Under the pieces are notes generated by a model, which saw nothing but the letters and a program-made list of their open reading frames with translations, searched no databases and had not been told where the DNA came from. The position numbers and the translations under genes are program-made. Below, piece by piece: positions 5,805 to 44,138 of a DNA stretch of 49,741 nucleotides. How positions within the stretch are numbered: position 1 is the stretch's first letter; each line of letters begins with the position of its first letter. Origin of the DNA: Nemertoderma westbladi. Its lineage: Eukaryota; Animalia; Xenacoelomorpha. Location: positions 1 through 49,741 of the forward strand of contig JAUCBJ010007661.1 of assembly GCA_032718475.1 (NCBI GenBank), in the 5' to 3' direction.

Positions 5805-6385
5805 AAGTAAGTACTGTAGTTATTCTAACTAAATTTACAAAAATGCACAAAAAGGAAAGATTAAAGTAATTAAGACGGTATATATTAAAGGTTTTACTGT
5901 AGGTGCAAATCTGAAAAATAATTAAAATTAACCACACACGTACGGAATGCTCTATTAAGTTGAATGAAAACGTTACTTAGTCAAACCTATTATACAATTA
6001 CAATTGCAAAATTGATTATGTAAGTACTGTAGTTAGTCCCATTAAAATTACAAAAATGCACCAAAAGGAAAATATTAAAGTAGTTAAAACGATTTATTAA
6101 TGGTTTTAGGTGCAAATCCGAAAAATAATAAATATTAACCACGTACGTACGGAAGTTCAATTAAATTGAATGAAAAACGTCTTGTTAGTCTAACAATTGC
6201 AAAATTGATTATGTAAGTACTGTAGTTAGTCCCATTAAAATTACAAAAATGCACCAAAAGGAAAATATTAAAGTAGTTAAAACGATTTATTAATGGTTTT
6301 AGGTGCAAATCCGAAAAATAATAAATATTAACCACGTACGTACGGAAGTTCAATTAAGTTGAATGAAAAACGTCTTGTTAGTGTT
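5805..6385. repeat. About 193-bp tandem repeat (3 copies) in the Penelope 3' UTR
   Basis: 6001-6193 and 6194-~6382 are near identical; a more diverged copy lies at ~5805-5990. Confidence 0.85.
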
Positions 6386-6508
6386 TTGTTAGTCTAACAT
6401 AATATACAGTATATTACAATTGCAAAATGCATCAATACAATTTACTAATTAAACGTATTTATTTATTAATTATTATTATTATAGGGTTTAACCAGGAATA
6501 CAGTAGGA

Positions 6509-7132: not shown

Positions 7133-8880
7133 TATTAATAACTTAACTTAATAACTTAATAACTTAATAACTTAATAATAATAATATTAATAACTTAATA
7201 ATAATAATAATAATATTAATAACTTAATAATAATAATATTAATAACTTAATAATAATAATATTAATAACTTAATAATAATAATATTAATAACTTAATAAT
7301 AATAATATTAATAACTTAATAATAATAATATTAATAACTTAATAATAATAATATTAATAACTTAATAATAATAAAATTAATAACTTAATAATAATAATAT
7401 TAATAACTTAATAATAATAATATTAATAACTTAATAATAATAATATTAATAACTTAATAATAATAATATTAATTACTTAATAATAATAATATTAATAAAT
7501 TAATAATAATAATATTAATAACTTAATAATAATAATATTAATAACTTAATAATAATAATATTAATAACTTAATAATAATAATATTAATAACTTAATAATA
7601 ATAATATTAATAACTTAATAATAATAATATTAATAACTTAATAATAATAATATTAATAACTTAATAATAATAATATTAATAACTTAATAATAATAATATT
7701 AATAACTTAATAATAATAATATTAATAACTTAATAATAATAATATTAATAACTTAATAATAATAATATTAATAACTTAATAATAATAATATTAATAACTT
7801 AATAATAATAATATTAATAACTTAATAATAATAATATTAATAACTTAATAATAATAATATTAATAACTTAATAATAATAATAATAATATTAATAACTTAA
7901 TAATAATAATATTAATAACTTAATAATAATAATATTAATAACTTAATAATAATAATATTAATAACTTAATAATAATAATATTAATAACTTAATAATAATA
8001 ATATTAATAACTTAATAATAATAAAATTAATAACTTAATAATAATAATATTAATAACTTAATAATAATAATATTAATAACTTAATAATAATAATATTAAT
8101 AACTTAATAATAATAATATTAATAACTTAATAATAATAATAATAATATTAATAACTTAATAATAATAATATTAATAACTTAATAATAATAATATTAATAA
8201 CTTAATAATAATAATAATAATATTAATAACTTAATAATAATAATATTAATAACTTAATAATAATAATATTAATAACTTAATAATAATAATATTAATAACT
8301 TAATAATAATAATATTAATAACTTAATAATAATAATATTAATAACTTAATAATAATAATATTAATAACTTAATAATAATAAAATTAATAACTTAATAATA
8401 ATAATATTAATAACTTAATAATAATAATATTAATAACTTAATAATAATAATATTAATAACTTAATAATAATAATATTAATTACTTAATAATAATAATATT
8501 AATAAATTAATAATAATAATATTAATAACTTAATAATAATAATATTAATAACTTAATAATAATAATATTAATAACTTAATAATAATAATATTAATAACTT
8601 AATAATAATAATATTAATAACTTAATAATAATAATATTAATAACTTAATAATAATAATATTAATAACTTAATAATAATAATATTAATAACTTAATAATAA
8701 TAATATTAATAACTTAATAATAATAATATTAATAACTTAATAATAATAATATTAATAACTTAATAATAATAATATTAATAACTTAATAATAATAATATTA
8801 ATAACTTAATAATAATAATATTAATAATAATAATAAATTAAATAATAATTAATATAAATAAATAATTAATAATAAATTAA
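7131..8880. repeat. 23-bp AT-rich satellite, right block (about 73 units)
   Basis: Same unit as 4970-5594, with slippage (taact/taataact repeats) at the Penelope junction. Confidence 0.97.
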
Positions 8881-9584
8881 ACCACGTTTATTACAGTACC
8901 GGTAGTACAGGTAACTAATGTTACTGCGAACAACAGTCTTTCGGAATTCACTGATAATATTTTAATTATTAAAACATTTTTAGTGGTTTTTGGAAATAAA
9001 ATACAATTATTTATTGACCTGTTATAAGTAAAGTGTCCTCCTCATTTGAAAGGTTCCATTGATTGAATTTTGAACGAATACGCCTTTATTTAACACGTAA
9101 ACACCGGTTGTTACCGGCTACCCTATACAGATTATTTTACAATTATTCACAATAATTTACTATAACCCGTAGAAGTGCGAACCATTATTTTTCACCTAAA
9201 CAATGAATATGTGGTGCATAAGATTGACAGAATTCTAGTTGACATTCAGTAATTTTTAAATAATTTTTGTTGACATTTAGTAATTTCGTCTCCCGTCCAT
9301 TGCCTATGGGTATGACACGCCATAGCCATAAACTTTTCGCCTGAAATTTTTTCACATCTGGAATAATGATTAATTTTTAATTTGCACACCGTAGTGTACA
9401 AATTTGGAACATTCTACCAGAACACGTTGTGTCGGCTTCAAAAATAAATATTTTTAAGTACAATCTGTTGGAAATATATTTACTACCGGTCCGGTACGAC
9501 TGAGTTTCTGTTTAATTTAAATAAAAATATAATAACATTATAATTGAGGGAGAAAACTGTGAACTGAATTTTGAAAATTACCAA

Positions 9585-19458: not shown

Positions 19459-19711
19459 ACCTAAAATTACTTTTCATCTTCTTAATCTTCAATCATCTTC
19501 ATAACTAATATTTTTTCTCCACATCATTTCGCTCAGCAGACTATATGAATCTACTCCGGATAGATATGAGTCGGGTTGACTGATGTAGAAGATGCGGTAC
19601 ACATAGATGTGTCTTTTTTATCTGAATCTAGAATAAACCTCCCACCCCCCCCCCCCCCCCGCCCCCCCGAATATTATTAAGACAACGTAGTGATTGCTAG
19701 AAATATTGGCG

Positions 19712-21034
19712 ATGTCAAATATCGGGCGTCGTAGCTCTACGGCTGGTTCTGTTGGAAATAGTCCCCGTCAGAGCGGCGGCAGCCTTACCGGGAAGGCGAC
19801 GACGAAAAAACAAGGGAAGAATTCGGGCCCTCTGCTGACAGGCGCTGGGCTGAATAAATGTCCACGCCATGACACTTATTCCGCGGCGCAACAACCAACG
19901 GACAACAACCGCGATGATGGTCAAAACGAGATAGAGGTTGAATGCTCCGGCAGCAGGTGTAATGTAGCGATGGTATGCATAGTAAAAGATGACACAGACT
20001 TTGGTCAGGTCGACTTTTACTGTGGCAAATGCGTCGCCAAAAACTTATCAAAAGTTTCTAACGACGTAAATAAGATGGAAGCACGCTTAGAAGAAAAATT
20101 AAACTCTCTCAATGCTGATCTTAAGAGTTTGATTCAGTTCCACGACGATCGGTGTCACAAGGTATTAAGATCATTGCGATCTGATCACGACGATCACGTA
20201 GAGGAGAGTGCAACCAAAGCAGATAATATCGAAACGCAAATAGATACACTTCGGGAGACGTTAGAAGCTCAACGAGAACGAGAGGATCATTCAACTGGAG
20301 GACAGGGTGACGATAACGAAGAATGGCAACAACCAAACACTCGGCGCAATCGTCGGAATCGCCTTCATCGTGAACCGCTGGCGCAAAGCGTTTCAAACCA
20401 AACCATTGTGTCTTCCAATGTTGCACTGTTGGCATGGCAACTAAAGGGAGAAGAGGGGCAACGCGATAAACGTAAAAATAATATTAAAATATCTGGTCTC
20501 TCAAACAATTTGGACGATGATTTGGACAACGTTATTTCGGTGGCAAACGAACTCGGGATTTCCCTATCCATGTCCGATGTATCTGCTATGAGAGTTGGAA
20601 CACTTCGCGACGATAGGCCACAGCCGATAGTCGCCACCGTTCCATCTGCTGAAAGGATCCAGCTACTACAAAATGCGCGAAATCTACGTAGCTCACAGCG
20701 CTTTCAGGGAGTCTATATTTCTCCAGATTATACGCCCGCTGAGAGTCAACTTCAGTTCCAGTTACGTCAGGAACGTCGGGAACGGCAATCTACAGAACCA
20801 AATACAAAATGGATAATCTACCGAGGCAATGTAATAGATGCCGCCATGATATCGAATCGTGGTTCTCATCACGTACCTGCCGCGGTCGATACTAGCGTGC
20901 CTAATACACACTCAGCGCGAACGTTTTACAGATCGAATGGCCCCGCATCTAATCGACAGAATGACAATGACGATCACCAATTGAGTGTGTCCTTCATTCC
21001 CCCCACTCAACTGGATGAGGGACAGTCAGATTGA
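19712..21034 (+). CDS. LINE ORF1 protein (Cys finger, coiled coil, RRM-like/L1-ORF1-like C-terminus)
   Basis: Intact ORF from the ATG at 19712: CSGSRC...FYCGKC, a heptad region, then KRKNNIKISGL...RVG...RPQPIV...LLQNARNLR...GVYISPDYTPAE. Confidence 0.85.
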   Translation: MSNIGRRSSTAGSVGNSPRQSGGSLTGKATTKKQGKNSGPLLTGAGLNKCPRHDTYSAAQQPTDNNRDDGQNEIEVECSGSRCNVAMVCIVKDDTDFGQVDFYCGKCVAKNLSKVSNDVNKMEARLEEKLNSLNADLKSLIQFHDDRCHKVLRSLRSDHDDHVEESATKADNIETQIDTLRETLEAQREREDHSTGGQGDDNEEWQQPNTRRNRRNRLHREPLAQSVSNQTIVSSNVALLAWQLKGEEGQRDKRKNNIKISGLSNNLDDDLDNVISVANELGISLSMSDVSAMRVGTLRDDRPQPIVATVPSAERIQLLQNARNLRSSQRFQGVYISPDYTPAESQLQFQLRQERRERQSTEPNTKWIIYRGNVIDAAMISNRGSHHVPAAVDTSVPNTHSARTFYRSNGPASNRQNDNDDHQLSVSFIPPTQLDEGQSD

Positions 21035-21037
21035 CTA

Positions 21038-24000
21038 TTGCAATACACAATACCAGTAACGGTTGCTGCTTGGTCCCCCGCACCCATAACCGTCGCTGCT
21101 GGGTCCCCTGCACCCACTACCGTCGCTGCTGGGTCCCCCGCACCCACAACCGTCGCTGCTGGGTCCCCCGCACCCACAACCGTCGCTGCTGCGTCCCCCG
21201 CACCCACAACTGTCGCTGCTGGGTCCCTCGAATCCACAGCCATCGCTGCTGGGTCCCCCGCACCCATAACCGTCGCTGCAGGGTCCCCCGCACCCACAAC
21301 CGTCACTGCTGGGTCCCCCGCACCCACAACCGTCGCTGCTGCATCCCCCGCACCCACAACCGTCGCTGCTGGGTCCCTCGAATCCACAGCCATCGCAGCT
21401 GGGTCCCCCGCACCCACAACCATTGCTGCTGGGTCCCTCGAATCCACAGCCATCGCTGCTGGGTCCCCCGCACCCATAACCGTCGCTGCTGGGTCCACCG
21501 CACCTACAACCGTCACTGCTGGGTCCCCCGCATCCACAACCGTTGCTGCTGCGTCCCCCGCACCCACAACCGTCGCTGCTGCGTCCCCCGCACCCACAAC
21601 CGTCGCTGCTGGGTCCCTCGAATCCACAGCCATCGCAGCTAGGTCCCCCGCACCCACAACCATTGCTGCTGGGTCCCGCGCACCCACAACCGTCGCTGCT
21701 GGGTCCCTCACACCCACAACCGTCGCTGCTGCATCCCCCGCACCCACAACCGTCGCTGCTGGGTCCCTCGAATCCACAGCCATCGCAGCTGGATCCCCCG
21801 CACCCACAACCGTTGCTGCTGGGCCCCGCGCACCCACAACCGTTGCTGCTGGGTCCTCTGCACCCACAACCGTCGCTGCTGGGTCCCTCGCAGCCACAAC
21901 CGTCGCTGGTAGGTCCCTTGAATCCACAACCGTCGCTGCTGGGTCTCCCGCACCCACAACCGTCGCTGCTGCATCCCCCGCACCCACAACCGTCGCTGCT
22001 GGGTCACTCGAATCCACAGCCATCGCAGCTGGATCCCCCGCACCCACAACCGTTGCTGCTGGGCCCCGCGCACCCACAACCGTTGCTGCTGGGTCCTCTG
22101 CACCCACAACCGTCGCTGCTGGGTCCCTCGCAGCCACAACCGTCGCTGGTAGGTCCCTTGAATCCACAACCATCACTGCTGGGTCCCCCGCACCCACAAC
22201 CGTCGCTGCTGGGTCCCCTCCCCCTGCACCAACTACCTTCGCTGCTGGGTCCCCCGCACCCACAACCGTCGCTGCTGGGTCCCTCGAATCCACAGCCATC
22301 GCAGCTGGGTCCCCCGCACCCACAACCATTGCTGCTGGGTCCCGCGCACCCACAACCGTCGCTGCTGGGTCCCTCGCATCCACAAAAGTCGCTGCTGGGT
22401 ACCTCACATCCACAACTGTCGCTGCTGGGTCGCCCGCATCCACTACCATCGCTGCTGGGTACCACTCACCCACACATGTTGCTGTTGGGTCCACAACCGC
22501 ATCTAATTCAACCACTGCCATCCCAACTCTGTTGTTATACAACGCTCGTAGCCTTCTAAATCTACACAGGCGATGCAAACTGGCAAATTCAATTCTGATC
22601 CGAGACTACAATATAATATGCATAACTGAAACTTGGCTTACTCCTGAGATACTCGATAGCGAATTTATTCCTCACTGGTTACAACTTAATACGTACGGAG
22701 CGTAGCTCAAAATTTGATTGTATCTCAACACATGGAGGTGTCCTTATTGCTCTACAAAATGGAATTAACTACACGCCAGAATATATTAATGGTGCTTCTG
22801 ATAGATTATCAAGTTCAGTTACTGCCTGTTTGTGCAATATTAACGGTTTAACATATTTACTTGTATGTATATACAACCCACCTGACAAAAGCCCATACCG
22901 CTTAGAAGTTGCTGATTTTTACAAATTACTAGACTACATAATAACATTTAAGGATCACGTTGACGACGTGATCATATGTGGGGATATCAATCTGCCTTCT
23001 GTAGATTGGGAGTCTCACTTTTCTACAGATAACTATGAGAAGGACATTTTATACGCTATTGACAAACACAACTTTAAACAACACATAAATTTTCCTACAC
23101 GGGGAGCTAATACGCTTGACGTTTTCATATCATTAACAGACAATACAATTCTCAACATTGAGATTGACTACAACCTATCTAGACAATTACAGGCAGTTGA
23201 AATCAAGTCAGACCATGACCCTGTCCTGGTTATTTTAAACTCACAATGTAATGCTGCAAAGCAAACACGGCAGCCGATCCAGTCCAATCCCTTGTTGCAT
23301 TATAGTTTTTGTAAAATAGATACACTGAAGGCGACCCAGATTTGTGAATCTCAGCCATTTGACGAAAAATTGTACAATATGACCGATTGTGAGGATCTAG
23401 TTAATAAATGGTATCAATGGCTGAATAATGTTATCGACAACTGTTATCGACAAACCTAAATGAACAGCGCATTGTGCCTCTCAACCACCATGGGTGACAC
23501 AAAAAACCTCACATAAGTTAAATAAATTACACACTCTCCAGCGTAAAATTGCTTCAAAGATATCGCAAACATTAAACCTTCAGGTTAAGATGGAAAGGTT
23601 ACAGGAAGAAGTTGAAAATGATATTTTAGCTGACCAAACAAAGTACGAGATGCAGCTAGCAGACACCCGTTCAATGAAACATCTCTTCAAATATTTCAAA
23701 AGCCTACGGAGGTCTTATTCACTGCCACCAGTAGTACAATACGAGAATCGTACGGCATCCACTCATGAGGATCAGGCTAATCTATTTAACGAGTTCTTCC
23801 ATTCCGTTTTTAAATCCCCGCGAATACCTACTAGCGATATACAACCACCACTTAACGACACAAACTCTGAAAGCTTGAACACGACACACGACTACGACGT
23901 GTCAGTTGACACAGTGGAGAATATACTTACGTCTTTAGATGCTACGAAATCTTGTGGACCAGACAATATTCCACCTTCATTATTTAAATCCCTCGCAAAA

Positions 24001-25195
24001 GTACTAGCACCCTCAATGTCATTCCTATTCGGGAGGCTGAAAAAAAAAACCACTTCCCCGTAGCATGGAAGCATGCACTAATAAATCCTCAACATAAAAA
24101 AGGTAGTAGAATCAAGGTAATCTTATACCGGCCAATATCTCTCTTAGCGATTCCTGGAAAAGTATTTGAGCGTTGCATCTTTATCCCCATCTACGAACAA
24201 GTACGTAGTAGGTTACATGACGCACAACATGGATTTAGGAAGTCAAGATCAATGATCACACAATTACTTACATTTCTAGACAATGTCTACAAGGGTACGG
24301 ATAACGGCCAATTGACAGTAGAAGTAATATACTTAGATTTCCAGAAAGCGTTTGACTCTGTCAGCCACGAATCCGTTCTGCGAAAATTATGGATAATGGG
24401 GGTCCGCGGAAATCTCTGGTATATCCTCCGGAGCTACCTAGCAGGAAGAACACAGTCAGTAAAAGTCGGAAACGCGAAGTCAACTCCCCGATCTGTCGAC
24501 AGTGGCATGGCTCAGGGGTCCCTATTGGGACCACTATTCTTTGTTGTTGAGAGCAATGATCTCCCAGAAGTTTGTCATGTCAGCATACCATTTCTCCTCG
24601 CAGACGATTGCAAATTATTATCAGTATCACATGTCGATTCCATCATCAACACACAATTAGATATTGACCGACTTGTGACATGGGGTCTCGAGGCTGGACT
24701 AGATTTTAATGAACCGAAATGCAAGCAAATAGTCTTCAAAGGCGACATAGAAGCTCGGTCATTGTACTCAAGGACTATATCTCGAGTCGATACAGAGAAG
24801 GATTTAGGAATAACCATAACATCAAATTTATCATGGACCGCCCACATTAAGGACAAATGCAGTAAAGCAAATAGAACATTATACCTGATCCGAAGAAGCA
24901 GTTATTTTCGCCTACCAGTACAATCCAAGCTAAACCTCTATAAATCCATGGTATTGCCAATCTTAACCTATGGGTCGCCTTGTTGGTTTGCCAACAAGAC
25001 GGACGCACACAAACTCGAGTCCATCCAGCGGAGAGCAACAATCTGGATTATTGGTAATGACGATCACACCTACAAGGAGAGACTCATAATATTAAACATT
25101 CTACCGATCTCATTATACTTACAATTATCCGACCAACTAACCTTGTCAAAGATAATAAATAATAAATACGACATTGACTGGTCGCCACATCTAAA
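21038..25195 (+). pseudogene. LINE ORF2 (VNTR + APE endonuclease + reverse transcriptase), disrupted
   Basis: Motifs YNARSL, IICITETWL, HGGVLI, YNPP, GDINLP, PTRGANTLD, SDH, KSCGPDNI, YRPISLL, QHGFR, YLDFQKAFDSV, QGSLLGP, LADDCKL and EKDLGI. Frameshift at ~22675 and stops at 23457 and 24061. Confidence 0.92.
21055..22500 (+). repeat. 30-bp GC-rich coding VNTR, about 48 copies (TTVAAGSPAP)
   Basis: Unit caccca caaccgtcgctgctgggtcccccg, with a 240-bp higher-order duplication (21721 vs 21961). Confidence 0.97.
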
Positions 25196-25734
25196 TGTGA
25201 CGGGATCCAGGAAGGATTCCGGTTTATCCGGTTTGTCAGTTCACGCGTCCCCGCCGTGTGTGAAAGATAAAAGAGTTTGCGTTGTTTGTCGTATATAATA
25301 TTCGGGATATATAATATAGATATAGATAATGGCTGGTAATATATTGTTGTATATGGAAGACGGGAGACGGTAATTGAAGTCCCGGTACTTCCCTAGCTAA
25401 ACTATTGCTACTGTAACACCAATAACACTGAGATAACTGAATGAGATGATTACTGCCAACTGGTTATATTGCACGGGTTGGCCTTGTTACTCTACCTATC
25501 CGATGCCTTTCCCCCCTCTTATTGGTTGATACCCTTGTTGGCGCCCTTTGGAGTGTTCCCGTTCACTCCACCTATTCTCTTTCGGTTAGGGGTTTGGCCC
25601 CTGACCCTCATTGTGTTTCTCCTTCCCATTTTGTTGGGGTGACACGAGTTACTGGTTACCCAATCTCGTGGCCCCCAATATTGCTTATCGGCTTACTTTA
25701 TGGGTTTGGGTTAGCGGGATTGAATAAGCTAACA
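25196..25734 (-). repeat. 3' LTR (539 bp)
   Basis: tgtgacgggatc...gaataagctaaca; about 9 differences from 33035-33572 by manual comparison. Confidence 0.97.
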
Positions 25735-25743
25735 CTACCCCCC
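25735..25743 (-). promoter_or_regulatory. Polypurine tract
   Basis: The minus strand GGGGGGTAG directly abuts the 3' LTR, which fixes the element orientation. Confidence 0.8.
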
Positions 25744-26444
25744 ATGCTATCTTCCCGGTGAGAAGATAGCATCCACCTTAAAGTGCGCTACAATCCCGCT
25801 GGATCCCGATCTAGTATCGGGTGTGGGGTGGAATTCTTTTCCCTCGGAGTCGGCTTTCCAGGCCGCTCCCCATGGGTATGATAACGCTACCCTGTACGCC
25901 TGGCGTCCCATGTCGGGCCGATTGCGCTCACCTCTCACACGACCTTTGTTTCCCCAACACTTTCGCCCTGACTCTACTCTTCTCTCATACAGACTCTCCT
26001 CTCTCCCGCTCTAACTCTCGGACCTCCCTGTCCCTCACTCAGCCTCTTATTCCTACCCCCCCCCCACACTAGAATTGCATCCGCACTCCGCACTATTACT
26101 CCATCCCTCTTTGACTACCTTATCCCTTCTGACGAGTCTCACCCCCCCTCCCGTGCCGTCGCACTCAAGAAGTGTGAAATCGTCTGGTGTCTTGTCCATA
26201 GTACCATAGTCAGTTATCCCCCCAGTCCCAGTAGCTAATTGAGAAAGGTTGTATGACTATAGTATTTACTTCGAATGTATGTTTCGTGACTAAACTACTG
26301 ATTGCTACGTACGTACATATAAATTGCACTTATTTAATTATTTGCATCATTTTGAATTTGTACTTAATAGTTTGTACGTCTTGTGTGGCACCCTCCAAGC
26401 GTGCCACATCAAAGTCTCAGTCTCTCCCTCCCGACCCTGTGAAG

Positions 26445-28901
26445 CTATTTGTCCCCCTTGAGATAGTTCCCTCTGGCGTCCTCCTCCCTGGGTCGCTTCT
26501 TGGTCACTACCGCTCCTCTGGGGTCCGCTTTCTGTCTTCGGACTTTCGCCGCCACCTCTCTACTGATTCCGGTCGTTGGCTCCTTGGGCGCTGGTGTTAT
26601 CAGTGCCCGATATCGCTTTGCCGGTGGCCCCTCCGAGTGGCCCTGTTGTCTCCCCCTGGTGGCGTCCCATAAGATCATCTTCATTGCTCGCGGTACATGC
26701 TCCGCCAAGAAATCCCTAAACTCTCCTCTGTTTTGTGGCGTCCACCTATCCAAATACCTCTGTGTATTTATCACCCCGGCATACGATGCCGCCGTCGCCA
26801 CTTCCTGGTAGGTAAACGGAAGCCTCCGTTTGATAATCTCCATGTGAGCCTCCTGATTGATTAGGAAGAAACCCCACTTAAACTCCTGGGCCTTCATACG
26901 TTGCCGCGTCATGGCCCCGACGTCGGCCCATTCTTCGAAGATCCTGAACTTCTCCTCATCGTCCATCCAGTCGCAGTAGAGACAACTTATCCCTTTCTGG
27001 AATCGGTACAGGCAGCTCCTTTCCTGATGGGTCTGTCTCCCACAGTAGTCACAGCCGAGCACCAATGTCTCCCGCCCCACGTCGTCTTTCGTCCCAAGCG
27101 ATCTCCGCGGTCTGTGGAGTCGCTGATAGGCGAACTTCTGGACGTTAGCGTCCCTGTCTACGTCGATTTCCTCGCCCCTCCCGGGCATCGTCTCCCCGAA
27201 TACTACCCATGGTGCCGTTCCCGGTTGCTCGCCCAACCTGATAGTGCTCCCCGCGAAATCCATCGCCGGCTCCTCGTGCACCCAGGCCCGCTTGCCGGGT
27301 TTGTCCCAGAGGGCTCTCGCCCCACTAGCCGTCACCACCCTCCCGCCAACCCAGTCCGTGTCCGAGTGGCCTATCCTCTCGATGGGCGGCATCTCTCCGA
27401 ACTCGTCGTCGTCTTCGTCCTCCTCTTGCAGTAGTTCCAACCCCGGTATCCCGATGGATCCACTATGTCCCTTCCCGCCTTGGCTCTCGCCCGTAGCTCT
27501 CCATCCCTCTAGCTCCCTTAACTTCCTTGGCGGTTGGTCGCCTTCGGCGCCCGCTGGTATGGGCATCGCTTGCAACCCCGACGTCGACTGTTTCGGCGAT
27601 CCCACCGTCCATCCCAGTTCTCGCCCTAGAGACTCCCCCGAACTCCCTGATGAAGTCCAACGAAGTTCGTCTAAGCCTGCCTGTTCCTCGAAGCCGTAAC
27701 TCTGCGTCCTGGCCTCCTCCTCCCTCTCCTCTGCTTCTATCCTTTCCCGTCTAGCGACTTCTTCCAGTCGCTTTGCCTCTCGTCTATCTGTCTCTAGCTG
27801 CTCCCATCTCTGATATGGCGTATCTACCTCCCCGTCTACCAGATGTCGGCTGTTGTAGTACACCGACTCGCCCTTCAGCCCCAGGTGGTCTACCAGACCG
27901 TCAAAGGCCGTCTTAAAGGCTCTCCTGTAGCTTAGGGGTGATCCTGATAACAGAAATGCCGCTGGTTCCCTCTCGATAACCACGGTCATGAATAAGTTAA
28001 GCAAACTTATCATCATCCAATCTTCCTGCAGGATATATCGCTTCTGATATACCTTTATCGCTCCTCTGCGGAATTGATACACCTTTTGCCTTCCCGGTCT
28101 CGCTCCCCACTTTAGCGAGTTCGCTAGTTCTGCTCCGTATTCCTCCCTGAACTTCCCCCAGTCCATCGGTTTGTGGCATATGAGCCCCAATAGCTGGCCC
28201 ATTGCCACCGCCCCCCATTGGCCTGTGTTCCCGACTACTCCCAACCCATCTGGTGCCGTCATAGCCATGAAGACCTTCTGCATATCCAGGAGGTTGGTGG
28301 CGTCCGGACCGATGATTCTCTCCACGTCCTCGCGAATCGCCGATCCCAAATTCGTCGTCGACTTCTCTCTTACCAGAACTTGCACCGCTTTCGGCAACCG
28401 GTTTAATTTCGGCCCGTCCCTTTTCCCATACGTTCCTAGATCGAATAAGAAAATGTTCCCATTTGGCGCGGCCAAATGTAGGAGTATGGTCCTGGCCGAC
28501 CCCGCTGATCCTCGTCTCGAACCCTCCTCGTCTTCCACGGTTCCCTCGTCGTCTAGGATCATATATCCTCCCCTGTTGACGGACTCTATAAACCTCTTCC
28601 AATCCTTCTTCGGCGACTCCCTCGGATACTTCGGAATCCCGAACTTCGCCTCGTCCCCTTTCACCACGTAGTGGAAGTGTTGGAAGATCGCGTTGTCCAG
28701 CGACGGCGTCCCGTAGGTCCCGACCAGCCGCTGTTCGTGCATCTCCCGGAAGTGGTCCTGCAGCGCTCGTGCCGCGTGGCCCTTTTCCAACCTCTCGTAG
28801 TATCCTCTCGTCTTCTCTTCCGGATGCCTCTTGGTGATATCCACCAGTATCTCCTTTCCTCCTGACTCCGCCTTTCTCTTCCTGATCAGTTTGCTCGCCA
28901 T
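26445..28901 (-). CDS. About 818-aa accessory protein: DEDDy/RNase D-WRN-like 3'-5' exonuclease domain, coiled coil, CCHC zinc knuckle
   Basis: Uninterrupted ORF from the ATG at 28901. ExoI YMILDDEG; LHLAAPNGNIFLFDL; LPKAVQVLV; ExoII GSAIREDVERI; LLDMQ; ExoIII-like YQKRYILQED; CDYCGRQTHQERSC (C-x2-C-x4-H-x4-C). Confidence 0.72.
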   Translation of the reverse strand: MASKLIRKRKAESGGKEILVDITKRHPEEKTRGYYERLEKGHAARALQDHFREMHEQRLVGTYGTPSLDNAIFQHFHYVVKGDEAKFGIPKYPRESPKKDWKRFIESVNRGGYMILDDEGTVEDEEGSRRGSAGSARTILLHLAAPNGNIFLFDLGTYGKRDGPKLNRLPKAVQVLVREKSTTNLGSAIREDVERIIGPDATNLLDMQKVFMAMTAPDGLGVVGNTGQWGAVAMGQLLGLICHKPMDWGKFREEYGAELANSLKWGARPGRQKVYQFRRGAIKVYQKRYILQEDWMMISLLNLFMTVVIEREPAAFLLSGSPLSYRRAFKTAFDGLVDHLGLKGESVYYNSRHLVDGEVDTPYQRWEQLETDRREAKRLEEVARRERIEAEEREEEARTQSYGFEEQAGLDELRWTSSGSSGESLGRELGWTVGSPKQSTSGLQAMPIPAGAEGDQPPRKLRELEGWRATGESQGGKGHSGSIGIPGLELLQEEDEDDDEFGEMPPIERIGHSDTDWVGGRVVTASGARALWDKPGKRAWVHEEPAMDFAGSTIRLGEQPGTAPWVVFGETMPGRGEEIDVDRDANVQKFAYQRLHRPRRSLGTKDDVGRETLVLGCDYCGRQTHQERSCLYRFQKGISCLYCDWMDDEEKFRIFEEWADVGAMTRQRMKAQEFKWGFFLINQEAHMEIIKRRLPFTYQEVATAASYAGVINTQRYLDRWTPQNRGEFRDFLAEHVPRAMKMILWDATRGRQQGHSEGPPAKRYRALITPAPKEPTTGISREVAAKVRRQKADPRGAVVTKKRPREEDARGNYLKGDK

Positions 28902-29394
28902 CCCGAACTCTCCCGATCGCTCACCTATAAGGTGGTGCCTTACCAAGGCGCAATATAAGCGAGTGATGCAGTTAGGATGGTCTGTGTAGTTCGAGAATGG
29001 CCTATTTCTATTCTAACTGCGCCTCTTAGCCTAAATCCCTGTTACTTAATTCTGTAGCTAATAAATGTACCCTAATTTACAATTTTGTCCGTTGCTTTAT
29101 TTATGTTCCAGAATTTTCTTATTGCTGTTACCATAATTTGTAATTTTCTAGCCCTATTTATTCTATTTAATTTTAATTTATTTTTAACCCTACTGTCCTA
29201 CTACTTGCTACTGCCTATCCTATGGATTGTTCTATCTCCTAATCCACATTCTGGCCTACTCTGTGGGCCTGTGCAGTACAACAGTATGCGTCGTGTGGCC
29301 ACACGATTTATCCAGCTGTACTCATATGCCCCCCTCTCGCTACTAATTACTAACTGATATCTATACCATATATACCCTACTACCTCTATCTCTA

Positions 29395-30055
29395 TCTCTT
29401 ACTAACTAGTACTACGTACTTTCTTACTAACTCTTACTTTTTATAACTAACTAACGGTACTATGTACCTTCTAACTCTTACTCTCTCTAACTAACTAACG
29501 GTACTACGTACCCTCTAACTCTTCTAACTCTACTAACTGACAGTACTACGTACCCTCTAACTCTTCTAACTCTACTAACTGATGGTACTACGTACCCTCT
29601 AACTCTTCTAGCTCTACTAACTGACGGTACTACATACCCTCTAACTCTCTAACTAACGGTACTACGTACCCTCTAACTCTCTAACTAACGGTACTACGTA
29701 CCCTCTAACTCTCTAACTAACGGTACTACGTACCCTCTCACTACTCTTCTCTAACTAACGGTACTACGTAACCTCTAACTCTTCTAACTAATGGTACTAT
29801 GTACCCTCTAACTCTCTAACTAACGTTACTACGTACCCTCTCACTACTCTTCTCTAACTAATGGTACTACGTACCCTCTAACTCTTCTAACTAACGGTAC
29901 TACGTACCCTCTAACTCTCTAACTAACGGTACTACGTACCTCCTAACTAACTAACTAACTAACTCTAGGTACTAGGTACCTTCTAACTGACTCCTAACTA
30001 ACTAACTCTAGGTACTACGTACCTTCTAACTGACTCCTAACTTACTAACTCTAAT
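29395..30055. repeat. Variable-length tandem repeat (ctaactaacggtactacgtaccctctaact, ~31-40 bp) inside the LTR element
   Basis: About 17 copies of the gtactacgtacc core separated by ctaa/ctct slippage tracts. Confidence 0.9.
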
Positions 30056-30160
30056 TTTTATTTGTTTTATTTTATTTTATGTGTGGGAAGGGCGTCTCGC
30101 CCTCAATCCCACCCCCCTCAGTCCAAAACTTGGACGACTAAACTCCTCTCTAACTACAAT

Positions 30161-30480
30161 CTAAGGTGCCCCTTCTAATAGACAGCATTTCCCTACAGCT
30201 CTCCTGTAGGTTTTTCTGTCCTTCGCACCTATCTTGCCACCTATCCGCACTTCTACCGATCGGACTCTTCCGTCCTCATCGGAGTAAGTGCCTACAACTC
30301 TCGCCAACCGCCACTGGTTGTTGATGATAGTATCATCCGTAACGATTACGAGATCTCCCTCTCTTAACTCCCTATTCGGCTTCCTCCACTTGCTTCTTTT
30401 ATGGAGCGTGGGTAGGTATTCTTCTACCCACCTCCTCCAATACTCTGCGCTTATTGCTTTAGCGACTTTCCAACTTTGGC
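30161..30480 (-). pseudogene. BEL/Pao pol C-terminal domain (DUF5641-like), not in the supplied ORF track
   Basis: Manual translation: QSWKVAKAISAEYWRRWVEEYLPTLHKRSKWRKPNRELREGDLVIVTDDTIINNQWRLARVVGTYSDEDGRVRSVEVRIGG...YRRAVGKCCLLEGAP*. Confidence 0.9.
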
Positions 30481-30620
30481 GGGAGTGCCCTCTTCTGATC
30501 GGGCTCGACGCTTCGTCCGCCCTCTCACGACGTCAACCTGTCTCTCTCTGCTCGGTCGCACGCCGTTGGGGATACTCGCAATCCCCCTATCATTCTCCGT
30601 CGCCGGGCGTTGCTGTTTAC

Positions 30621-31530
30621 CTATTTCGGCCCGCGCATTATCCATGGACGCCTGTGGGGCACTCTCTGCCCCCCCCCCCCCCTCGCCGCTAACTCGCTGT
30701 TGTGGGGCCCCTGTAGCCCCCCCCCCCCCCACTCGCCACATATCACGCCGCTGCCTCTTACTTCACTTCTATACCCCTCTCCAGTCGACACAATGTTCCT
30801 ACTGCGGCTGGGTCTATTCATTCCCGCCTCTCTCTCTACCACTGCTTGGCCTACCGGGCCTACTCCGGGTTGGCTCAACCCCGCCACCTCCTGCCTACTA
30901 ACTACGCGGCCTACCAGGCCCCCCTTGGGTTGGCTCAACCCCGCCGCCTCCCGCCTACTAACTACGCGGCCTACCAGGCCCCCCTCGGGTTGGCTCAACC
31001 CCGCCGCCTCCTGCCTACTAACTACGCGGCCTACCAGGCCCATCTCGGGTTGGCTCAACCCCGCCACCTCCGGCTCACTAATCACGCGGTCCATTAGGCT
31101 GGTTTCCTGATTATGCACGCCCGACGTGTTCACATTAATAGCACCACAGGCACCGTTATTGGTTAAATCAATTAAATCTTGCACCCCAGTTAAATTATCT
31201 TGTGCACCCAAATTAGGAACGGAATTATTTTGTTCGTTCAAAATAAAGTTTTCCGGATTATTTTGCGCAATTGCGTTACTTAAATTATTTTGTAAGTTCG
31301 AATTCGGGTCATTATTTAAATTATTTTGATTATTTTGTGTAGCTACATTAATATTAGGATTATTTTCTACATTAATATTAGGATTACTCGGGTTTAAATT
31401 CAAATTACTGCCACTAGGCAAGATATTTTCTGCAATAAAGGTTTGGTTAGAGTTGTTCAATACGGTACTATTAATATTAACGACGTCTACTGTAGCATTA
31501 TTATTACCCCCCCCCCCCCCCCCCCCGCCC
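30621..31530 (-). CDS. Asn-rich/low-complexity gag-region segment with a 60-bp repeat x4 (30860-31095)
   Basis: Open frame NNSNQ...EPEVAGLSQPE.GLVGRVVSR repeats, bounded by G homopolymers. Probably a frameshifted continuation of the upstream ORF. Confidence 0.5.
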
Positions 31531-31536
31531 GTACGG

Positions 31537-32964
31537 TCACACCAGTTTTGTGTCTGTGTGTGCGGTCCCTGTAAGTGGGGTATTAATAAATGTATCCACG
31601 GCCCCTGGCTCCTCGAAAATATTCGAGCCAGTCCCTCTCTCAGACACCCCTATCCGCGCCAGTTCCACTTCGCGCACGCGTCTAACTCCGTACTCTATAA
31701 GCACACTTTGGCGTTTTCCCAACTCTTTTCGCTCACGTTCCTCTCTTTCCACTCTCTGCCGACACTCCCGTGCGCTCTGCTCGGCCAACTCTGCCACTCT
31801 CCTAGCTCCCTCCCATCGCCTTGTCTCACGCTCTTTACGTTCCTTTTCCTCTCTCGCCTCACGCTCCTTGCCTTCCGCCTCACGCTCTTTGCGTTCCTTT
31901 TCCTCTCTCGCTCCATGCTCCTTGCGTTCCTTCTCCTCTCTCGCCTCGCACTCCCTGCGTTCCACCACACGCTCCTCTTGTTCCTTTCTCTCTATTTCCT
32001 CACATTCCCTAAGGCTTTTCACAGCCCTTTCGGCCCTCTCTCCTGTTTCTCTAATCAGCACCATTTCCTTCTCCAGCAGCATTCTCCCCTCCTCTAACCA
32101 TCTATCTACCTCCCTCTGACCTTGCGCTATCAGGTCGAGATGGTACGTGGCATTTATCTCTCTCACCCGTCTTTCTTTTACGGAGGATGTAGCAGACTTA
32201 TCGGTCGTGACGGATTCTCTCCGCCTCCCCGTCCTACTAACTTTCCCCCGCCTCCCGGAACTCCCTCCGACCGACGAGGCCGAATCCTCGGGGTTAACCT
32301 CGGATTCGCCCTCCTCAGGTCTCCTCCAACCCACAAATTTTATACCCTGGGCATCGACCAAGTATGGCCCTATGTACACTACATATGGTTGCATACCCCT
32401 ACACCGCCATAAGTCACACAGTTCCTCGGCAACCCCTCTCGCTCTCTCCTTGGCCAGTTCTCTCTGCCCGAAGCGCATTAGATAATTAAAATGTCCATTT
32501 GACTCACCTAGTCGTTTCCTCAGTCTCACCTCGTCTATCTTCGCCCCCTCCCTGGCTTCCTTTAGTAGTTTCCGGGTCGCGTTGTAGGCCCATCGAAGTC
32601 GATCAGAAACCCCGACGTCCTCGTCGCCGACCTCTCTTCCGTCTCTCCGGGTCTGACGTCGAACCGGTGGCCCCACCGTCGCCGTTTCGGTGGGCCGTTC
32701 GTCGCCCTCGGCCTGTGGCTGGCCGGCTACGTCGGTACGTCGACCCTCGTTCCGTGTCGACTCGTCTCCTTCTCCCTCCGTCTCGCTCTCTCCTTCTCCT
32801 AACTCGACCTCTGGCTCCAGACGGCCCCCCTCATCCTGAACTGCCGGATGACCCGTTACCGATGGGTCCGGCGTCGTGGGCCTATACCGTCTGGTCGCGG
32901 CCTCGCGGATCGTTAGTTCTTCGTCCGGGGTCCGCGTAGGTGTCGTCTCTCCTGACTGACTCAT
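31537..32964 (-). CDS. Gag-position ORF (475 aa, acidic N-terminus, long E/R coiled coil)
   Basis: ATG about 70 nt inside the 5' LTR boundary. PEDSASSVG motif followed by a coiled coil, as often seen in BEL/Pao gag N-termini. Confidence 0.7.
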   Translation of the reverse strand: MSQSGETTPTRTPDEELTIREAATRRYRPTTPDPSVTGHPAVQDEGGRLEPEVELGEGESETEGEGDESTRNEGRRTDVAGQPQAEGDERPTETATVGPPVRRQTRRDGREVGDEDVGVSDRLRWAYNATRKLLKEAREGAKIDEVRLRKRLGESNGHFNYLMRFGQRELAKERARGVAEELCDLWRCRGMQPYVVYIGPYLVDAQGIKFVGWRRPEEGESEVNPEDSASSVGGSSGRRGKVSRTGRRRESVTTDKSATSSVKERRVREINATYHLDLIAQGQREVDRWLEEGRMLLEKEMVLIRETGERAERAVKSLRECEEIERKEQEERVVERRECEAREEKERKEHGAREEKERKEREAEGKEREAREEKERKERETRRWEGARRVAELAEQSARECRQRVEREERERKELGKRQSVLIEYGVRRVREVELARIGVSERGTGSNIFEEPGAVDTFINTPLTGTAHTDTKLV

Positions 32965-33034
32965 CTCTCTTCTATAGATTGGTGCTAGCTTTAGTTACTG
33001 AGTTCAACTAGGGCGGCAGCTCTGTTTCAATTAC

Positions 33035-33572
33035 TGTGACGGGATCAAGGAAGGATCCCGGTTTATCCGGTTTGTCAGTTCACGCGTCCCCGCCGTGTGT
33101 GAAAGATAAAAGAGTTTGCGTTGTTTGTCGTATATAATATTCGGGATATATAATATAGATATAGATAATGGCTGGTAATATATTGTTGTATATGGAAGAC
33201 GGGAGACGGTAATTGAAGTCCCGGTACTTCCCTAGCTAAACTATTGCTACTGTAACACCAATAACACTGAGATAACTGAATGAGATGATTACTGCCAACT
33301 GGTTATATTGCACGGGTTGGCCTTGTTACTCTACCTAGCCGATGCCTTTCCCCCTTCTGATTGGTTGATACCCTTGTTGGAGCCCTTTGGAGTGTTCCCG
33401 TTCACTCCACCTATTCTCTCTCGGTTAGGGGTTTGGCCCCTGACCCTCATTGTGTTTCTCCTTCCTATTTGTTGGGGTGACACGAGTTACTGGTTACCCA
33501 ATCTCGTGGCCCCCAATATTGCTTATCGGCTTACTTTATGGGTTTGGGTTAGCGGGATTGAATAAGCTAACA
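33035..33572 (-). repeat. 5' LTR (538 bp)
   Basis: Direct repeat of 25196-25734 with TG...CA ends. Confidence 0.97.
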
Positions 33573-33577
33573 CTAAA

Positions 33578-33887
33578 GATGAAGCAAACAAACCTCAGAA
33601 GAAACACTCGTAGCGCTAACCGACCCTCGTTTGATCTCACACACCCCCTAAAGTGCATATCAAAACAAAATTTCTGGTTTCGCGCACCACAATTGGCAAA
33701 TCAGCTTCCCCTTCAGACAGAGTATTTTAATCACGTTGGTTTAAAGGCGCGCCTATTGAATCTGTTCTGGGCCCACTTTCACCAACATTACGATGTTGAC
33801 ATCACTTGCAGTTGGAACATTAACTGTGACTGTACACAGATGAACTGCAACCTCCGAATATTGAACCTTAACAACTTACTCACTTGA
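33578..33887 (+). pseudogene. C-terminus of the interrupted LINE ORF2
   Basis: Joining across the TSD gives WSPHL-KMKQTNLRRNTRS...NFWFRAPQLANQLP...TCSWNINCDCTQMNC*, a CR1-group type C-terminus. Confidence 0.85.
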
Positions 33888-33909
33888 TTTTATTACTTGC
33901 TAAAATATT

Positions 33910-37656: not shown

Positions 37657-38009
37657 AAAAAAATATTGCTCTTCACAAAAATCCCATTAGGGGCTCAGTA
37701 ACTTTAAAATTGCACGGTTCAGCACTCTGCTGCCGGACTATAAGATTTCTATAAACATTAGAGGAGGGTAGCCTACACGTATCCGAATTTATATAAACAT
37801 TAGGAGGGTAGCTACACGTATCCGAATTTATAAAATGAAAAGCCTGGTTCGCAGATACAATTCACGGTGACAGTGACGGCATTGCGTCGCATTTTGAATG
37901 CATCGCCACTTTGACATCGCTGTCACCGAATTCAAACTTTGCTCTAACCAAAAATCAAAACGTTGTGATTGACAAGCATTGCCATTCCAGACGATCTCAC
38001 AGCCCTGCG

Positions 38010-39513
38010 GATTTCAGGTCAAAATGTCGAAAGAGTCAAATTGTCGAACAGGTCAAAATGTCGAAAGAGTCAAGTTGTCGAACAGCCATGTCAAATTATC
38101 GAAAAAGCTTTCGACACAGACATGCCAAATTGTCGAAAGAGACATGCCAAATTGTCGAAAGAGACATGCCAAATTGTTAGAAATAGCCGGAAGCATCCAA
38201 GAGAAGCGTTCGATAGAGCCCTGCAAACTGTCGATATTAAGTACCAGGAGTATGGAGGACAGGTAGCTGCCGAAATTAAGGGGAAACCATCTGCTGGGTA
38301 CGGCTTCGACTCAAAACGCCGGTCATTAAGCAGAAACCGAGTGCATGGTGTGGTGGGTGGAGAGCCCCATGTTTTAGGATACGCTCTGATGAAGGGACAA
38401 TCGGAAGGAAGCTACATCAGGACGTTTACTGCTTTAAGATATAACATTTATCATCTTTGCGGTGAAGGTGGCAGACTTAATACAGCTAAGTGGCTTTTCG
38501 ATTTCGAACTTGCAGTAATGAATGCTTGCAATATAGTTTTCCCAATGGTGACCATGTTAGGTTGCGCTTTTCATTTCGCTAAGGCCATAAACGAGAAGCG
38601 AGACAGTCTTGGCCTCAAAGGTGTTTGTGTTGAAGATACAGCAGAGGGTAAAACTGTAAAGTATTGGTTCAAAGAGATTCGTTCTTTACCATTCCTTCCT
38701 GATGGGTATCGCTATCAGGTTGCCTATACTCTGATCAACGAACAGCTACCAAACCTGTCCGCTTTAACAGCCAATAAAGTTTTCCAATTTCGACAATATT
38801 TCATTGGATTTTGGCTTCGGCAGGATGTATTCATCAGAAGGGGACAGTTCGGAAATACCGGCCCTAGGACCAGCAACTGTGCTGAAGGTTTCCACAATGG
38901 GCTTCATTCCCGGCTCACCAGCCTCCATCCGTGCCTTGGAGAGATCCTGGAATTTTTCCAGTTAAATCAACATACTTCCCAGCAGCGCATGAAGGCCTTG
39001 CTAGAACCGAATACTATTGCTGTTCCCAAACCAAAGTCTCCACATATCTAGATACGGGACCAACGCTTGGTTGAGGAGATGGGGCGATTCGCAAACTATA
39101 TGGCTACATGGCCTAATAACATTTATTATAATAACTGTAAGATGTACATGCGTTGTTTGATGGTCATTGGACTGGTACCCCAGGCTTTAGAGGGGTAATG
39201 CCCAATGGTCAGCTAGTCAAGATAACTCTTACTGTATAGGCCTATATTGCCCATTGCTATTGAGATATTATACACAATTCGTTAGCCATATCAATTATCA
39301 GGTTTCAAATTTCTCAGGTTCAACAATTTAGTATCAAAATTCAAAAGTATCTAAAAAAGGATAAACGCCATATTGTCGAAAGGGGTGCGCCATATTGTCG
39401 AAAAAAAATTCGACATTTTGACATGCACAAAAACTTTTTCGACAATTTGACTCTACTTTTCGACAATTTGTCTCTTTCGACATTTTGGCTCTTTCGACAT
39501 TTTGACCATAAGC
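38010..39513 (+). mobile_element. MULE/MuDR DNA transposon, internally deleted
   Basis: TIRs ggtcaaaatgtcgaaagag.../...ctctttcgacattttgacc with subterminal tgtcgaaa repeats. cagccctgcg is duplicated at 38000-38009 and 39514-39523 (TSD 8-10 bp depending on where the end is placed). Confidence 0.92.
38180..39198 (+). pseudogene. MULE transposase remnant
   Basis: YALM...SY...F, DFELAVMNA, GCAFHFAKAI (CxxH) and RTSNCAEGFHN. The first catalytic Asp region is missing, and there is an in-frame stop at 39049-39051. Confidence 0.88.
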
Positions 39514-41580: not shown

Positions 41581-42758
41581 CCTCCCAATGCAGCTGGACA
41601 TTCAACTGGGTGATCGGCGGCCGGAAGAACGGCCATTGCCTGCTTGTCAGTCCCCAGACAGAACGCAATATCGTCTAGGTAGCGAGCCAGAGCCAGGCGT
41701 TTGTTAACAACATCGATATGAAGTAGCGGAATATGTTCCATGAAACCATTCATTGCTTCTTTGGCTGCTATTATTGGCTGTAATCCGTATATGTGCTTAA
41801 GGCTGTGACTAAGAATACCATAGAATACAATAATTTATTGAAATATTGAATGTGAGGTTGTCAAAGAACATACAGTATGTAAGATGGTAAAATCGCCCCC
41901 CCCCCCCCCCCCCCCTCACCTCTTCTAAATACTTCCATGCTGTGAAACATTATTACATTACATTTTACGGACCTCATCTATACGTAAACTCCATAGAATA
42001 ATATTGATAATGATTCCCTATGTAAAACCAAGACAATAGATTAGCCGTAACGCGACAATTAGTCGTAACGCAACTTTTAGAGTCAGCCATACCGCGACTT
42101 TGAAAAGACGCGTAACGACTAATCTCCCAAAAACTTAGACGTAACGCGACAGTAGCCGTAACGCAACGACACCCTATATACTGTAGTACTGTACTTTACT
42201 ATCAATTTGCAATGCCACAACACTTACTGCATGGATGTTATTAATCGTAATTAATACACTACGAAAATCTATTTGCAATAACATTTTAGATAAATTAAAT
42301 ACCAGTAGGCCTACTCTGGCACCTACAAGCCCTCGGTACCAGTAGTGTGATCTTGGCGACGTTTGTTTATTATTGTTGATGCCTTTTTGCTACTTTAATT
42401 TGGAATAATTATTACAAACTCTTCCCACTATTTTTTTACTAGTGAAATGTTGTTGTTAGATGTAAAGATGATAAATTAATTCCTGGAATGGCATTTTAAC
42501 GAGAAAATTCGTAAATTGTGATATCAATTATGAGCGATGTTTTATTTCTTGAAAGAAAAAATATAAAATTTTTATTTAAAACATTTTAATTTTTATATTT
42601 TTAAGTAAACTCCGGCTCCCGCTCTGGTTCCGGCCAAATTCCAACTCCTATTGGGCTATTTATACCAGTAGGCCTACAGTATAGCATATAGCAGGTATTT
42701 TATAACTAATTCTGATACTTTTGTACTTGAAGATTAATTAACTAACTCAGATAAAACA

Positions 42759-44138
42759 ATGGCAGCTGCTCCATCGAATCGAAAAGGTGAAGATAATATA
42801 TTGCTGTTCGACCTCCAACATTTCCCGGATGGAGACAAGTTCCTGTACGCCGGTTCCGAGGGCGTCGTTGTTTGCGATGCAACGAACCTCGGAGTTATCG
42901 GGCGGTACAAAGATGAGGATAAGAGACGAATAAACCGATGCGCTATATCAAGTGATGCCAAGAGAGTCGCGGGAACTGTCTTTAGTGAGGACGGTGGGGG
43001 CGTAAATGTTTGGGATACGGAGAGTCGTGAGCTGTTGTTCCACGTCGCTCACAATAAACTCCGTATAAACTCGGAGTCTACAGAAACTATCGGTGGGCTC
43101 TCACCTTCTCCCCATCGGACCCCAACGTGTTCTCAACATGTTGTAATGATGGAACTTTATCCATCATTACAATAAATCCTTCCGGTACCGCAACAGGTAA
43201 TTTATTTACTCATAAAACTTGGGCGGCTCACAGTGACTGGGTAACCGACATTGTATTCTCTACAGATGGTTCTCAGATAGTTAGCGGTTCCAGCGATGGG
43301 ACCGCTAAACTCTGGGACCTCAAAGGGAACCTAATAAAGGTTCTTATGGAAGGGGAGAGGAGAGTCTGGTCGGTAGCGTTTAATACAGATGGTACTAAAC
43401 TGTTAATAGCGGGTGACGGGTTCACTAAATGTATTTCCTTTATAACCGGTGCGGAATTATGGGAACAGAGTGTAGATGGGTCGGAGGTTAAATGGGAACC
43501 TCAGGGTGGGAGGGTTGCTGTGTGGAGCTGGTTTATAGATGGTTCATCGTGTATAAGTATATTAGATGGAGAATGGGAGGGTAATAAAGAAGTTTGTGGG
43601 TCGGCCGGGTGGGGAGTGGAACTGGTTCCAATCTATTAACTTCCACCCAGAAGGGAATTACCTACTGATTGGTTATAGAAAGGGAACTATTATTAAAATT
43701 AATATAAACCAAACCGATCAGATAGAACATATTAATGTAGGAGAAGTTAGTGAGAAAATAAAAGGAGCAAAAAAATGGGAAGAAATAGGGAAATACGTTG
43801 GGAAGGTGGGTCCGTTAGGGGAAGAGATACAGACGGTAGTTAAGGGAATTATTGATGAAACAGTTAGAAATAAACTCACAGAGGGACAATACGAATTGGC
43901 TACTAAATTAGAATCAGAAGTTCTACTAATTTATTTATTAAGTAGATTTGTTATCACTGGGGATCAGATAGATATAATTAAAACACTTCCAGGTAGCATC
44001 GCACAAAATAATAAACTTATTGAATTCCTTAAGAAACGGCCCTACAAAGACTTTCTTACATTCTGTGACGGACTTAGGGAAACTAACCAAGAACACTTAG
44101 CTGAAATTATTGAAATAAAACCGCCTCTTCCTAAATAA
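42759..44138 (+). pseudogene. Intronless WD40-repeat protein with a C-terminal CARD (death-fold) domain; two frameshifts
   Basis: WD repeats such as AHSDWVTDIVFSTDGSQIVSGSSDGTAKLWD, VWSVAFNTDG and FQSINFHPEG. The C-terminus VLLIYLLSRFVITGDQIDII...QNNKLIEFLKKRPYKDFLTFCDGLRETNQEHLAEII fits a CARD. Frames shift at ~43090 and ~43569. Confidence 0.8.

Follow-up and report, generated by a model that had tools for sequence, protein, structure and literature searches.

A predicted DEDDy exonuclease gene in the env position of a likely BEL/Pao retrotransposon family of Nemertoderma westbladi

ORF3 is an open reading frame (ORF) of 818 amino acids (aa) in an 8,377-bp long terminal repeat (LTR) element of Nemertoderma westbladi, located at positions 25196-33572 on the minus strand of contig JAUCBJ010007661.1; all coordinates are those of the window, meaning the whole stretch analysed, positions 1-49,741 of that contig. 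ORF3 is a cargo gene of the element's family, under purifying selection among the other copies, and its residues ~90-314 probably constitute a DEDDy 3'-5' exonuclease domain, behind which lies a zinc knuckle. The element likely belongs to BEL/Pao (Belpaoviridae). DEDDy ORF3s in retroelements are already known; what is new is the host superfamily, the ExoIII signature, the added knuckle and the absence of sequence relatives.

Enzymes of their own with which animal retrotransposons might counter small-RNA silencing have so far been largely hypothetical. DEDDy ORF3s have been described in the bdelloid LTR retrotransposons Juno1/2 and Vesta2/5 and in the Athena/Terminon retroelements (PMC5408684; also PMC6431247, PMC5718144 and PMC6338049), a precedent that an earlier note, made from the sequence of the window alone, had rightly pointed out. 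Since 2017 these ORFs have had no demonstrated activity, and the available parts of PMC5408684 report no test of selection on them. The present element extends the env-position DEDDy arrangement to a second LTR superfamily, brings evidence that its nuclease domain is under strong purifying selection and provides an intact nuclease-plus-knuckle protein amenable to direct assay, while its lack of sequence relatives suggests that standard annotation misses such cargo. If the fullest of the readings given below were true, unrelated retroelement superfamilies, the bdelloid Juno, Vesta and Terminons among them, would repeatedly place RNA-trimming enzymes in the env slot.

The predicted nuclease domain and knuckle of ORF3

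ORF3 lies on the sense strand of the element. It begins with an ATG at 28901, 1.26 kb past the stop of the DUF5641 integrase tail, and runs through 818 codons with zero internal stops to a stop ending at 26445, ~0.7 kb ahead of the polypurine tract and the 3' LTR (Table 1). The stop-free frame of ~818 aa that the earlier note had placed between the pol remnant and the 3' LTR, in the env position, is thus confirmed as a third ORF after the integrase tail. The motifs named there were all found in the stated order, starting between residues 115 and 289: ILDDEG at 115, LHLA at 141, IFLFDL at 150, LPKAV at 169, GSAIRED at 186, LLDMQ at 204 and YILQED at 289. Alignment puts D117 and E119 (the DxE of ExoI), D192 (the Asp of ExoII) and Y289 on invariant columns. 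ExoIII departs from the usual Yx3D, with Y289 kept, Glu293 at Y+4 and Asp294 at Y+5, a variant motif. The predicted catalytic site accordingly comprises D117, E119, D192, Y289 and E293 or D294.

Three signals, each weak to moderate, agree on a DnaQ-like fold of the RNase D-like, DEDDy type that had been proposed. For residues 90-360 the ESM Atlas feature scores are 0.93-0.94, with 165 of 256 features in common, 24 of 30 hits in one set and a best cluster carrying PF01612 on 34% of its members. A DEDDy profile built from 40 hand-picked bacterial PF01612 domains gives 7.1 bits on the ORF3 domain, a score matched or beaten by one of 2000 shuffles, and the PF01612 set places ORF3 at the top of the 36 long frames of the window. 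Finally, hhalign aligns the domain to DEDDy with an E-value of 2.6e-4 over 89 columns, reaching from ExoI to slightly beyond ExoII.

A number of results weigh against the assignment. Of 100 shuffled proteins, 4-10 reach an Atlas score of 0.9, two sub-profiles of 20 sequences each are weaker (reached by 11/2000 and 409/2000 shuffles), and the hhalign probability is only 42%. Seven of 14 conserved DEDDy columns are matched, which 38 of 300 shuffles equal (p ~0.13, not significant), so that the motifs alone do not exceed chance and the DEDDy support comes from the profile scores. The ExoIII Glu stands at a position that is Asp in 34 of 34 aligned reference domains. Sequence searches for the domain in Pfam, NCBIfam and the Protein Data Bank (PDB) gave no match up to E 10, and a search of 1.84 billion representatives returned no homologue; a search with residues 60-370 returned nothing, collections of metagenome, viral and genome contigs gave no match, and a plasmid search gave only noise at E 6-8. 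The fold predicted from the single sequence has a predicted local distance difference test (pLDDT) score of 35, and its structure matches, generic helical bundles, were discarded. The absence of any direct match, the chance level of the motif count and the Atlas scores of shuffles would suit a conserved accessory protein with a different fold that bears the motifs by chance. We regard this as quite improbable: language-model features, the hidden Markov model profile and hhalign agree on one family, and the order of strands and helices in the unaided model already agrees with DEDDy at strands 2-3 and the helices that follow.

An AlphaFold2 model guided by an alignment of 34 of the 40 PF01612 domains reached a pLDDT of 70.6 and a predicted template modelling score (pTM) of 0.68, and matches RNase D, WRN, Nibbler, trypanosome RNase D, Rrp6 and Exd1 with Z 11.5-12.7 and a root-mean-square deviation (rmsd) of 3.1-3.8. 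These matches are not independent, because the DEDDy alignment already implied the fold, and the model indicates compatibility with a DEDDy fold only. With the same circularity, Nibbler/Mut-7, EXD1, EXD2, WRN, Rrp6 and Egalitarian have the fold predicted for ORF3 (Z 9-12), and Nibbler, Exd1, RICE1 and Egalitarian are among the structural neighbours of the model. Since ORF3 has no detectable sequence similarity to cellular DEDDy proteins, its donor cannot be named; the structural matches are tied within ~1 Z.

Behind the predicted nuclease, what the earlier note had called a coiled coil is an E/R-rich stretch at residues ~373-397, a candidate coiled coil or single helix, and the CCHC knuckle of that note is present as CX2CX4HX4C at residues 617-630, where a Pfam match to zf-CCHC_4 falls below the cut-off (E 0.075-0.16). 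An additional CxxC lies past it at residues 640-643 (26973-26984, minus strand). Residues 585-770 look folded; their Atlas scores reach only 0.83, some of them with zf-CCHC, which serves as a lead only, and a homologue search with residues 585-790 gave no match. ORF3 has no transmembrane-like segment (top 19-residue hydropathy 1.35), and its N-terminus is hydrophilic, lacking the signal peptide and transmembrane anchor of an env protein. Because no transmembrane segment is present, an envelope gene is ruled out.

Like ORF3, the bdelloid DEDDy ORF3s are separate ORFs after pol, in the env position, with an RNase D-like domain, one catalytic Asp replaced by Glu and no transmembrane segment (PMC5408684). 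Their carriers, however, are rotifer-specific Juno/Vesta and Penelope-like elements rather than a likely BEL/Pao element; they have a DEED motif, in contrast to the retained Asp of ExoII and the Glu/Asp of ExoIII here; and they are said to be without coiled coils, with no CCHC knuckle described in the available parts of that paper. The ORF3 searches retrieved no homologue, in libraries for which the presence of the bdelloid DEDDy ORFs is not established. RNase D of Trypanosoma brucei (TbRND, PDB 7c42/7c45) resembles ORF3 in layout, a DEDD domain being followed by RNA-binding CCHC fingers that increase cleavage (PMC7797062), and it matches the alignment-guided model with Z 11.8. TbRND is, in contrast, a cellular protein with four fingers ~30 residues past the domain, whereas the single knuckle of ORF3 is 300 residues away, and searches of PDB sequences found no sequence similarity between the two. 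Dada DNA transposons of Laccaria and Ectocarpus likewise bear a DEDDy domain with its catalytic residues kept, but theirs is inserted within a DDE transposase and is thought to process DNA ends, unlike the ORF3 of a retroelement (PMC3706591).

We found no report of a DEDDy ORF3 in BEL/Pao in the literature, although Repbase, subscription journals and supplements, which could hold one, lay outside the search. The word "exonuclease" is absent from the main texts of a BEL/Pao survey (PMC3118150), of annelid and mollusc surveys (PMC8556966 and PMC6238403) and of PMC13524379.

Family cargo and selection among copies

The stretch is present in five of six listed DNA runs, which come from three studies of one organism. 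Substitutions were analysed within a 641-bp part of the nuclease domain (27980-28620, minus strand), for which runs X1 and X2, from two studies, hold 839 and 1,307 contigs at 80-100% likeness, 226 and 286 of them less than 90% alike, and run X4 holds two. Short contigs by the thousand cover the element, ORF3 included. Read depth was not taken as copy number.

From 96 variable places we took the 40 best supported, each judged singly with its X1 shares and weighted by depth; 27 are synonymous, 13 non-synonymous and none stop-creating, where 30% synonymous would be expected. By a cut of our own, places at which 85% or more of the depth disagrees with the window copy were set apart as copy-specific. 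The other 22, which segregate among the remaining copies, comprise 19 synonymous and three non-synonymous differences (p 6e-8; ratio of non-synonymous to synonymous polymorphism, pN/pS, ~0.07), whereas the 18 copy-specific ones comprise eight synonymous and ten non-synonymous (p 0.14 versus neutral). None of the 40 touches codons 117, 119, 192 or 289, those that fall in codons 293 and 294 are synonymous, and the only indels in the domain among those listed are one compensated pair. ORF3 is hence family cargo, under purifying selection among the other copies. The multi-copy contigs and the synonymous excess rule out a one-off host capture.

The same note had taken the survival of ORF3 despite the loss of pol as a sign of selection, an argument that fails for the window copy. 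At the age implied by its LTRs, the chance of zero stops in ORF3 is ~0.5 (indels excluded), and its own differences are near neutral; the copy is young, so its intact ORF3 needs no selection. It differs from nearly all other copies at 18 of the 40 sites, ~2.8% of the stretch, above the 1.5% between its LTRs, and possibly stems from a relaxed, pol-less sub-lineage. CpG decay was rejected as the origin of these differences, with only four of the 18 in a TpG/CpA context. Four X4 contigs part from the window sequence at 30487, where the integrase tail has its upstream edge; this would be seen if the deletion of the window copy were missing from other copies. We infer that in other copies an intact pol is joined to ORF3; none of the contigs shown links both.

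Possible roles of the nuclease

Tentatively, and with confidence somewhat short of even, we propose that ORF3 is an active 3'-5' exonuclease of the two-metal DEDDy kind, which shortens RNAs at their 3' ends and so blunts a small-RNA or surveillance response of the host. ORF3 would be expressed from a spliced or subgenomic RNA; read by eye only, branch-point-like and AG acceptor-like bases stand just upstream of its start. The CCHC knuckle may bring the nuclease to RNA, by analogy with the zinc fingers of trypanosome RNase D. Its substrates would be guide small RNAs or RNA-decay intermediates, the trimming of which would counter host small-RNA silencing or RNA surveillance. To our knowledge, most LTR elements replicate without such an accessory gene, and Nibbler, Exd1 and RICE1 have roles in small-RNA pathways. 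Bdelloid lineages gained a DEDDy ORF at least twice (PMC5408684). Counter-defence is favoured over a core replication step because the gene is rare in LTR elements, because of these bdelloid gains and because small-RNA trimmers are neighbours in fold. Other considerations pull the opposite way: nothing in the analysis identifies the substrate, a suppressor acting in trans invites free-riding, so that strong selection among copies fits a function in cis better, and in the available parts of PMC5408684 the bdelloid DEDDy ORF3s have no clear link to copy number.

The strength of that selection would suit, in the first place, a nuclease serving the element's own replication, held by its knuckle on the genomic RNA, trimming unpaired 3' ends and maturing primers, including self-primers. 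Processing of the 3' ends of element RNAs was suggested by Rodriguez 2017 (PMC5408684), and the primer site of the window copy is compatible with such a role. No TGG occurs in the first 40 nucleotides (nt) past the 5' LTR, where a tRNA-type site is absent, and the first 9 nt pair exactly with a segment of the LTR (Table 1). A complement of this length arose in 25 of 5000 shuffles at offset 0 and in 56 of 5000 at offsets 0-5. A predicted RNA fold retains the helix between primer site and LTR and prolongs it into U5 (z -1.69, equalled by 10 of 200 shuffles), and no LTR intron was found that extends or creates a primer complement to at least 9 nt. The site, resembling that of self-priming Tf1/Tj1 in its primer-LTR complement (PMC4600332), is therefore a candidate for self-priming, but the signal is post hoc and modest. 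A primer-maturation role for ORF3 is in our estimate unlikely; Tf1, moreover, makes its primer without an extra nuclease.

Still less likely is a DEDDy fold with little or no activity, in which case the protein would bind RNA as an adaptor or decoy, in the manner of Exd1 or Egalitarian, and act, for example, in RNA transport or by titrating a host silencing factor. The helical and knuckle modules would suit an adaptor, Exd1 and Egalitarian are among the structural neighbours of the circular model, and the ExoIII metal ligand is changed from Asp to Glu; in trypanosome RNase D the corresponding residue binds the A-site ion (PMC7797062). The earlier note had suspected a catalytically altered binder on the same ground; the atypical ExoIII stands, but the case is weaker than proposed, with Tyr289 kept and acids at both Y+4 and Y+5. 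All remaining catalytic positions are also kept, Asp294 could substitute, codons 293 and 294 vary only synonymously in the listed differences, and the DEED of the bdelloid ORF3s likewise has one Asp replaced by Glu (PMC5408684). Least probable is an enzyme that works on DNA, a 3'-5' exonuclease of the WRN/PolA type with a proofreading or end-trimming role on element cDNA: WRN and family-A polymerase tie with the RNases in the circular model (Z 12.2-12.7, rmsd 3.2-3.3, ~170 aligned) and the family acts on both RNA and single-stranded DNA (PMC5408684), but copies differ by up to 20% with the usual transition-rich spectrum, which does not point to proofreading. CCHC knuckles are also more typical of RNA binders.

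As for the active, counter-defensive nuclease that we prefer, its full combination with the other features is doubtful as a whole: a self-priming BEL/Pao lineage with an active, knuckle-tethered DEDDy nuclease of new ExoIII signature, acting as an enzymatic suppressor of silencing by PIWI-interacting or small interfering RNAs or as a primer-maturation enzyme, and the first such in Belpaoviridae.

Element architecture, BEL/Pao membership and surroundings

The window copy is a young internal-deletion derivative that carries ORF3 along, protease, reverse transcriptase (RT), RNase H, integrase core and most of gag having been deleted. Its LTRs are 98.5% identical (530 of 538 aligned bases, plus one gap), and the two 5-bp duplications that flank it are identical.

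Table 1. Features of the LTR element and of ORF3 (window coordinates)
Feature	Position	Strand	Remark
Target-site duplication, upstream copy	33573..33577		5 bp
5' LTR	33035..33572	-	538 bp, TG...CA ends
9-nt LTR segment complementary to primer site	33209..33217	-	present in 3' LTR too
Primer-site position, first 9 nt after 5' LTR	33026..33034	-	complementary to LTR 33209-33217
ORF1, gag-position N-terminal part	31537..32964	-	E/R/K-rich repeats
Second gag-side frame	30621..31649	-	Asn-rich, 60-bp repeats, different frame from ORF1
Integrase C-terminal tail, DUF5641	30161..30487	-	sole pol remnant; Pfam E 6.1e-26
Non-coding spacer	28902..30160	-	1.26 kb, tandem repeats of 32-43 bp
ORF3	26445..28901	-	818 aa, intact
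Predicted DEDDy (RNase D/EXD/WRN-type) 3'-5' exonuclease domain	27960..28634	-	residues 90-314
E/R-rich helical segment	27708..27785	-	residues ~373-397, candidate coiled coil or single helix, from sequence
Zinc knuckle CX2CX4HX4C	27012..27053	-	residues 617-630
Purine-rich tract adjoining 3' LTR	25735..25750	-	
3' LTR	25196..25734	-	539 bp
Target-site duplication, downstream copy	25191..25195		5 bp, within LINE RT region

Membership of BEL/Pao, as called in the earlier note, is likely, resting on DUF5641, the 5-bp duplication and background knowledge; DUF5641 we take to be a marker of BEL/Pao integrase tails. A homologue search with the integrase tail against longer proteins gave no match that would confirm the link. 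Belpaoviridae elements measure 4-10 kb (4.2-10 kb as a criterion) with LTRs of 0.2-1.2 kb (PMC8742986), and the present element agrees with BEL/Pao in LTR size, TG...CA ends, overall size, short duplication and DUF5641 as the last pol domain. It departs from the family profile in lacking the 18-nt tRNA-Arg or tRNA-Gly primer site described there (PMC8742986), a feature that is typical rather than defining, so that its absence does not exclude membership. Neither of the gag-side frames matches a Pfam family or contains a zinc knuckle, which is consistent with the deletion. Some Belpaoviridae have env-like third genes after pol, as here, in elements and LTRs of matching size (PMC8742986), but those described are envelope glycoproteins (Atlas virus, Roo, Chuviridae-like; available parts of PMC13524379), which ORF3 is not. 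On the gag side, the frame shifts near a run of ~23 G (31500-31650, minus strand), upstream of which the E/R/K-rich repeats differ in length among copies, as seen at contig joints.

The element interrupts the RT region (RVT_1, Pfam) of a long interspersed nuclear element (LINE). In each of runs X1-X3, one contig joins 25190 to 33573 with five letters in common, the empty form, which confirms the element boundaries and suggests that the insertion is polymorphic, although the target is itself a repeat and such a contig might therefore derive from another copy of the LINE. This LINE spans 19694-25195 and 33573-33890 (plus strand), with endonuclease and RT, an ORF1-like frame at 19694-21034 and, directly before the endonuclease, a 1.6-kb G+C-rich tandem repeat, open in more than one frame, at 21035-22600.

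Elsewhere in the window, a gag fragment with DUF1759 lies at 947-1438 (plus strand) and comes from a different LTR element, probably of BEL/Pao. An A+T-rich array of 23-bp tandem repeats (4780-9000, G+C as low as 7%) is broken at 6509-7147 by a frame that resembles, by eye, a GIY-YIG/Penelope tail, with no Pfam match. A MULE transposase fragment is found at 37969-39051 (plus strand). WD40 repeats followed by a C-terminal CARD occupy 42738-44138 (plus strand) spread over three overlapping frames that appear to lack introns or to be frameshifted, a layout of the immunity- or apoptosis-type.

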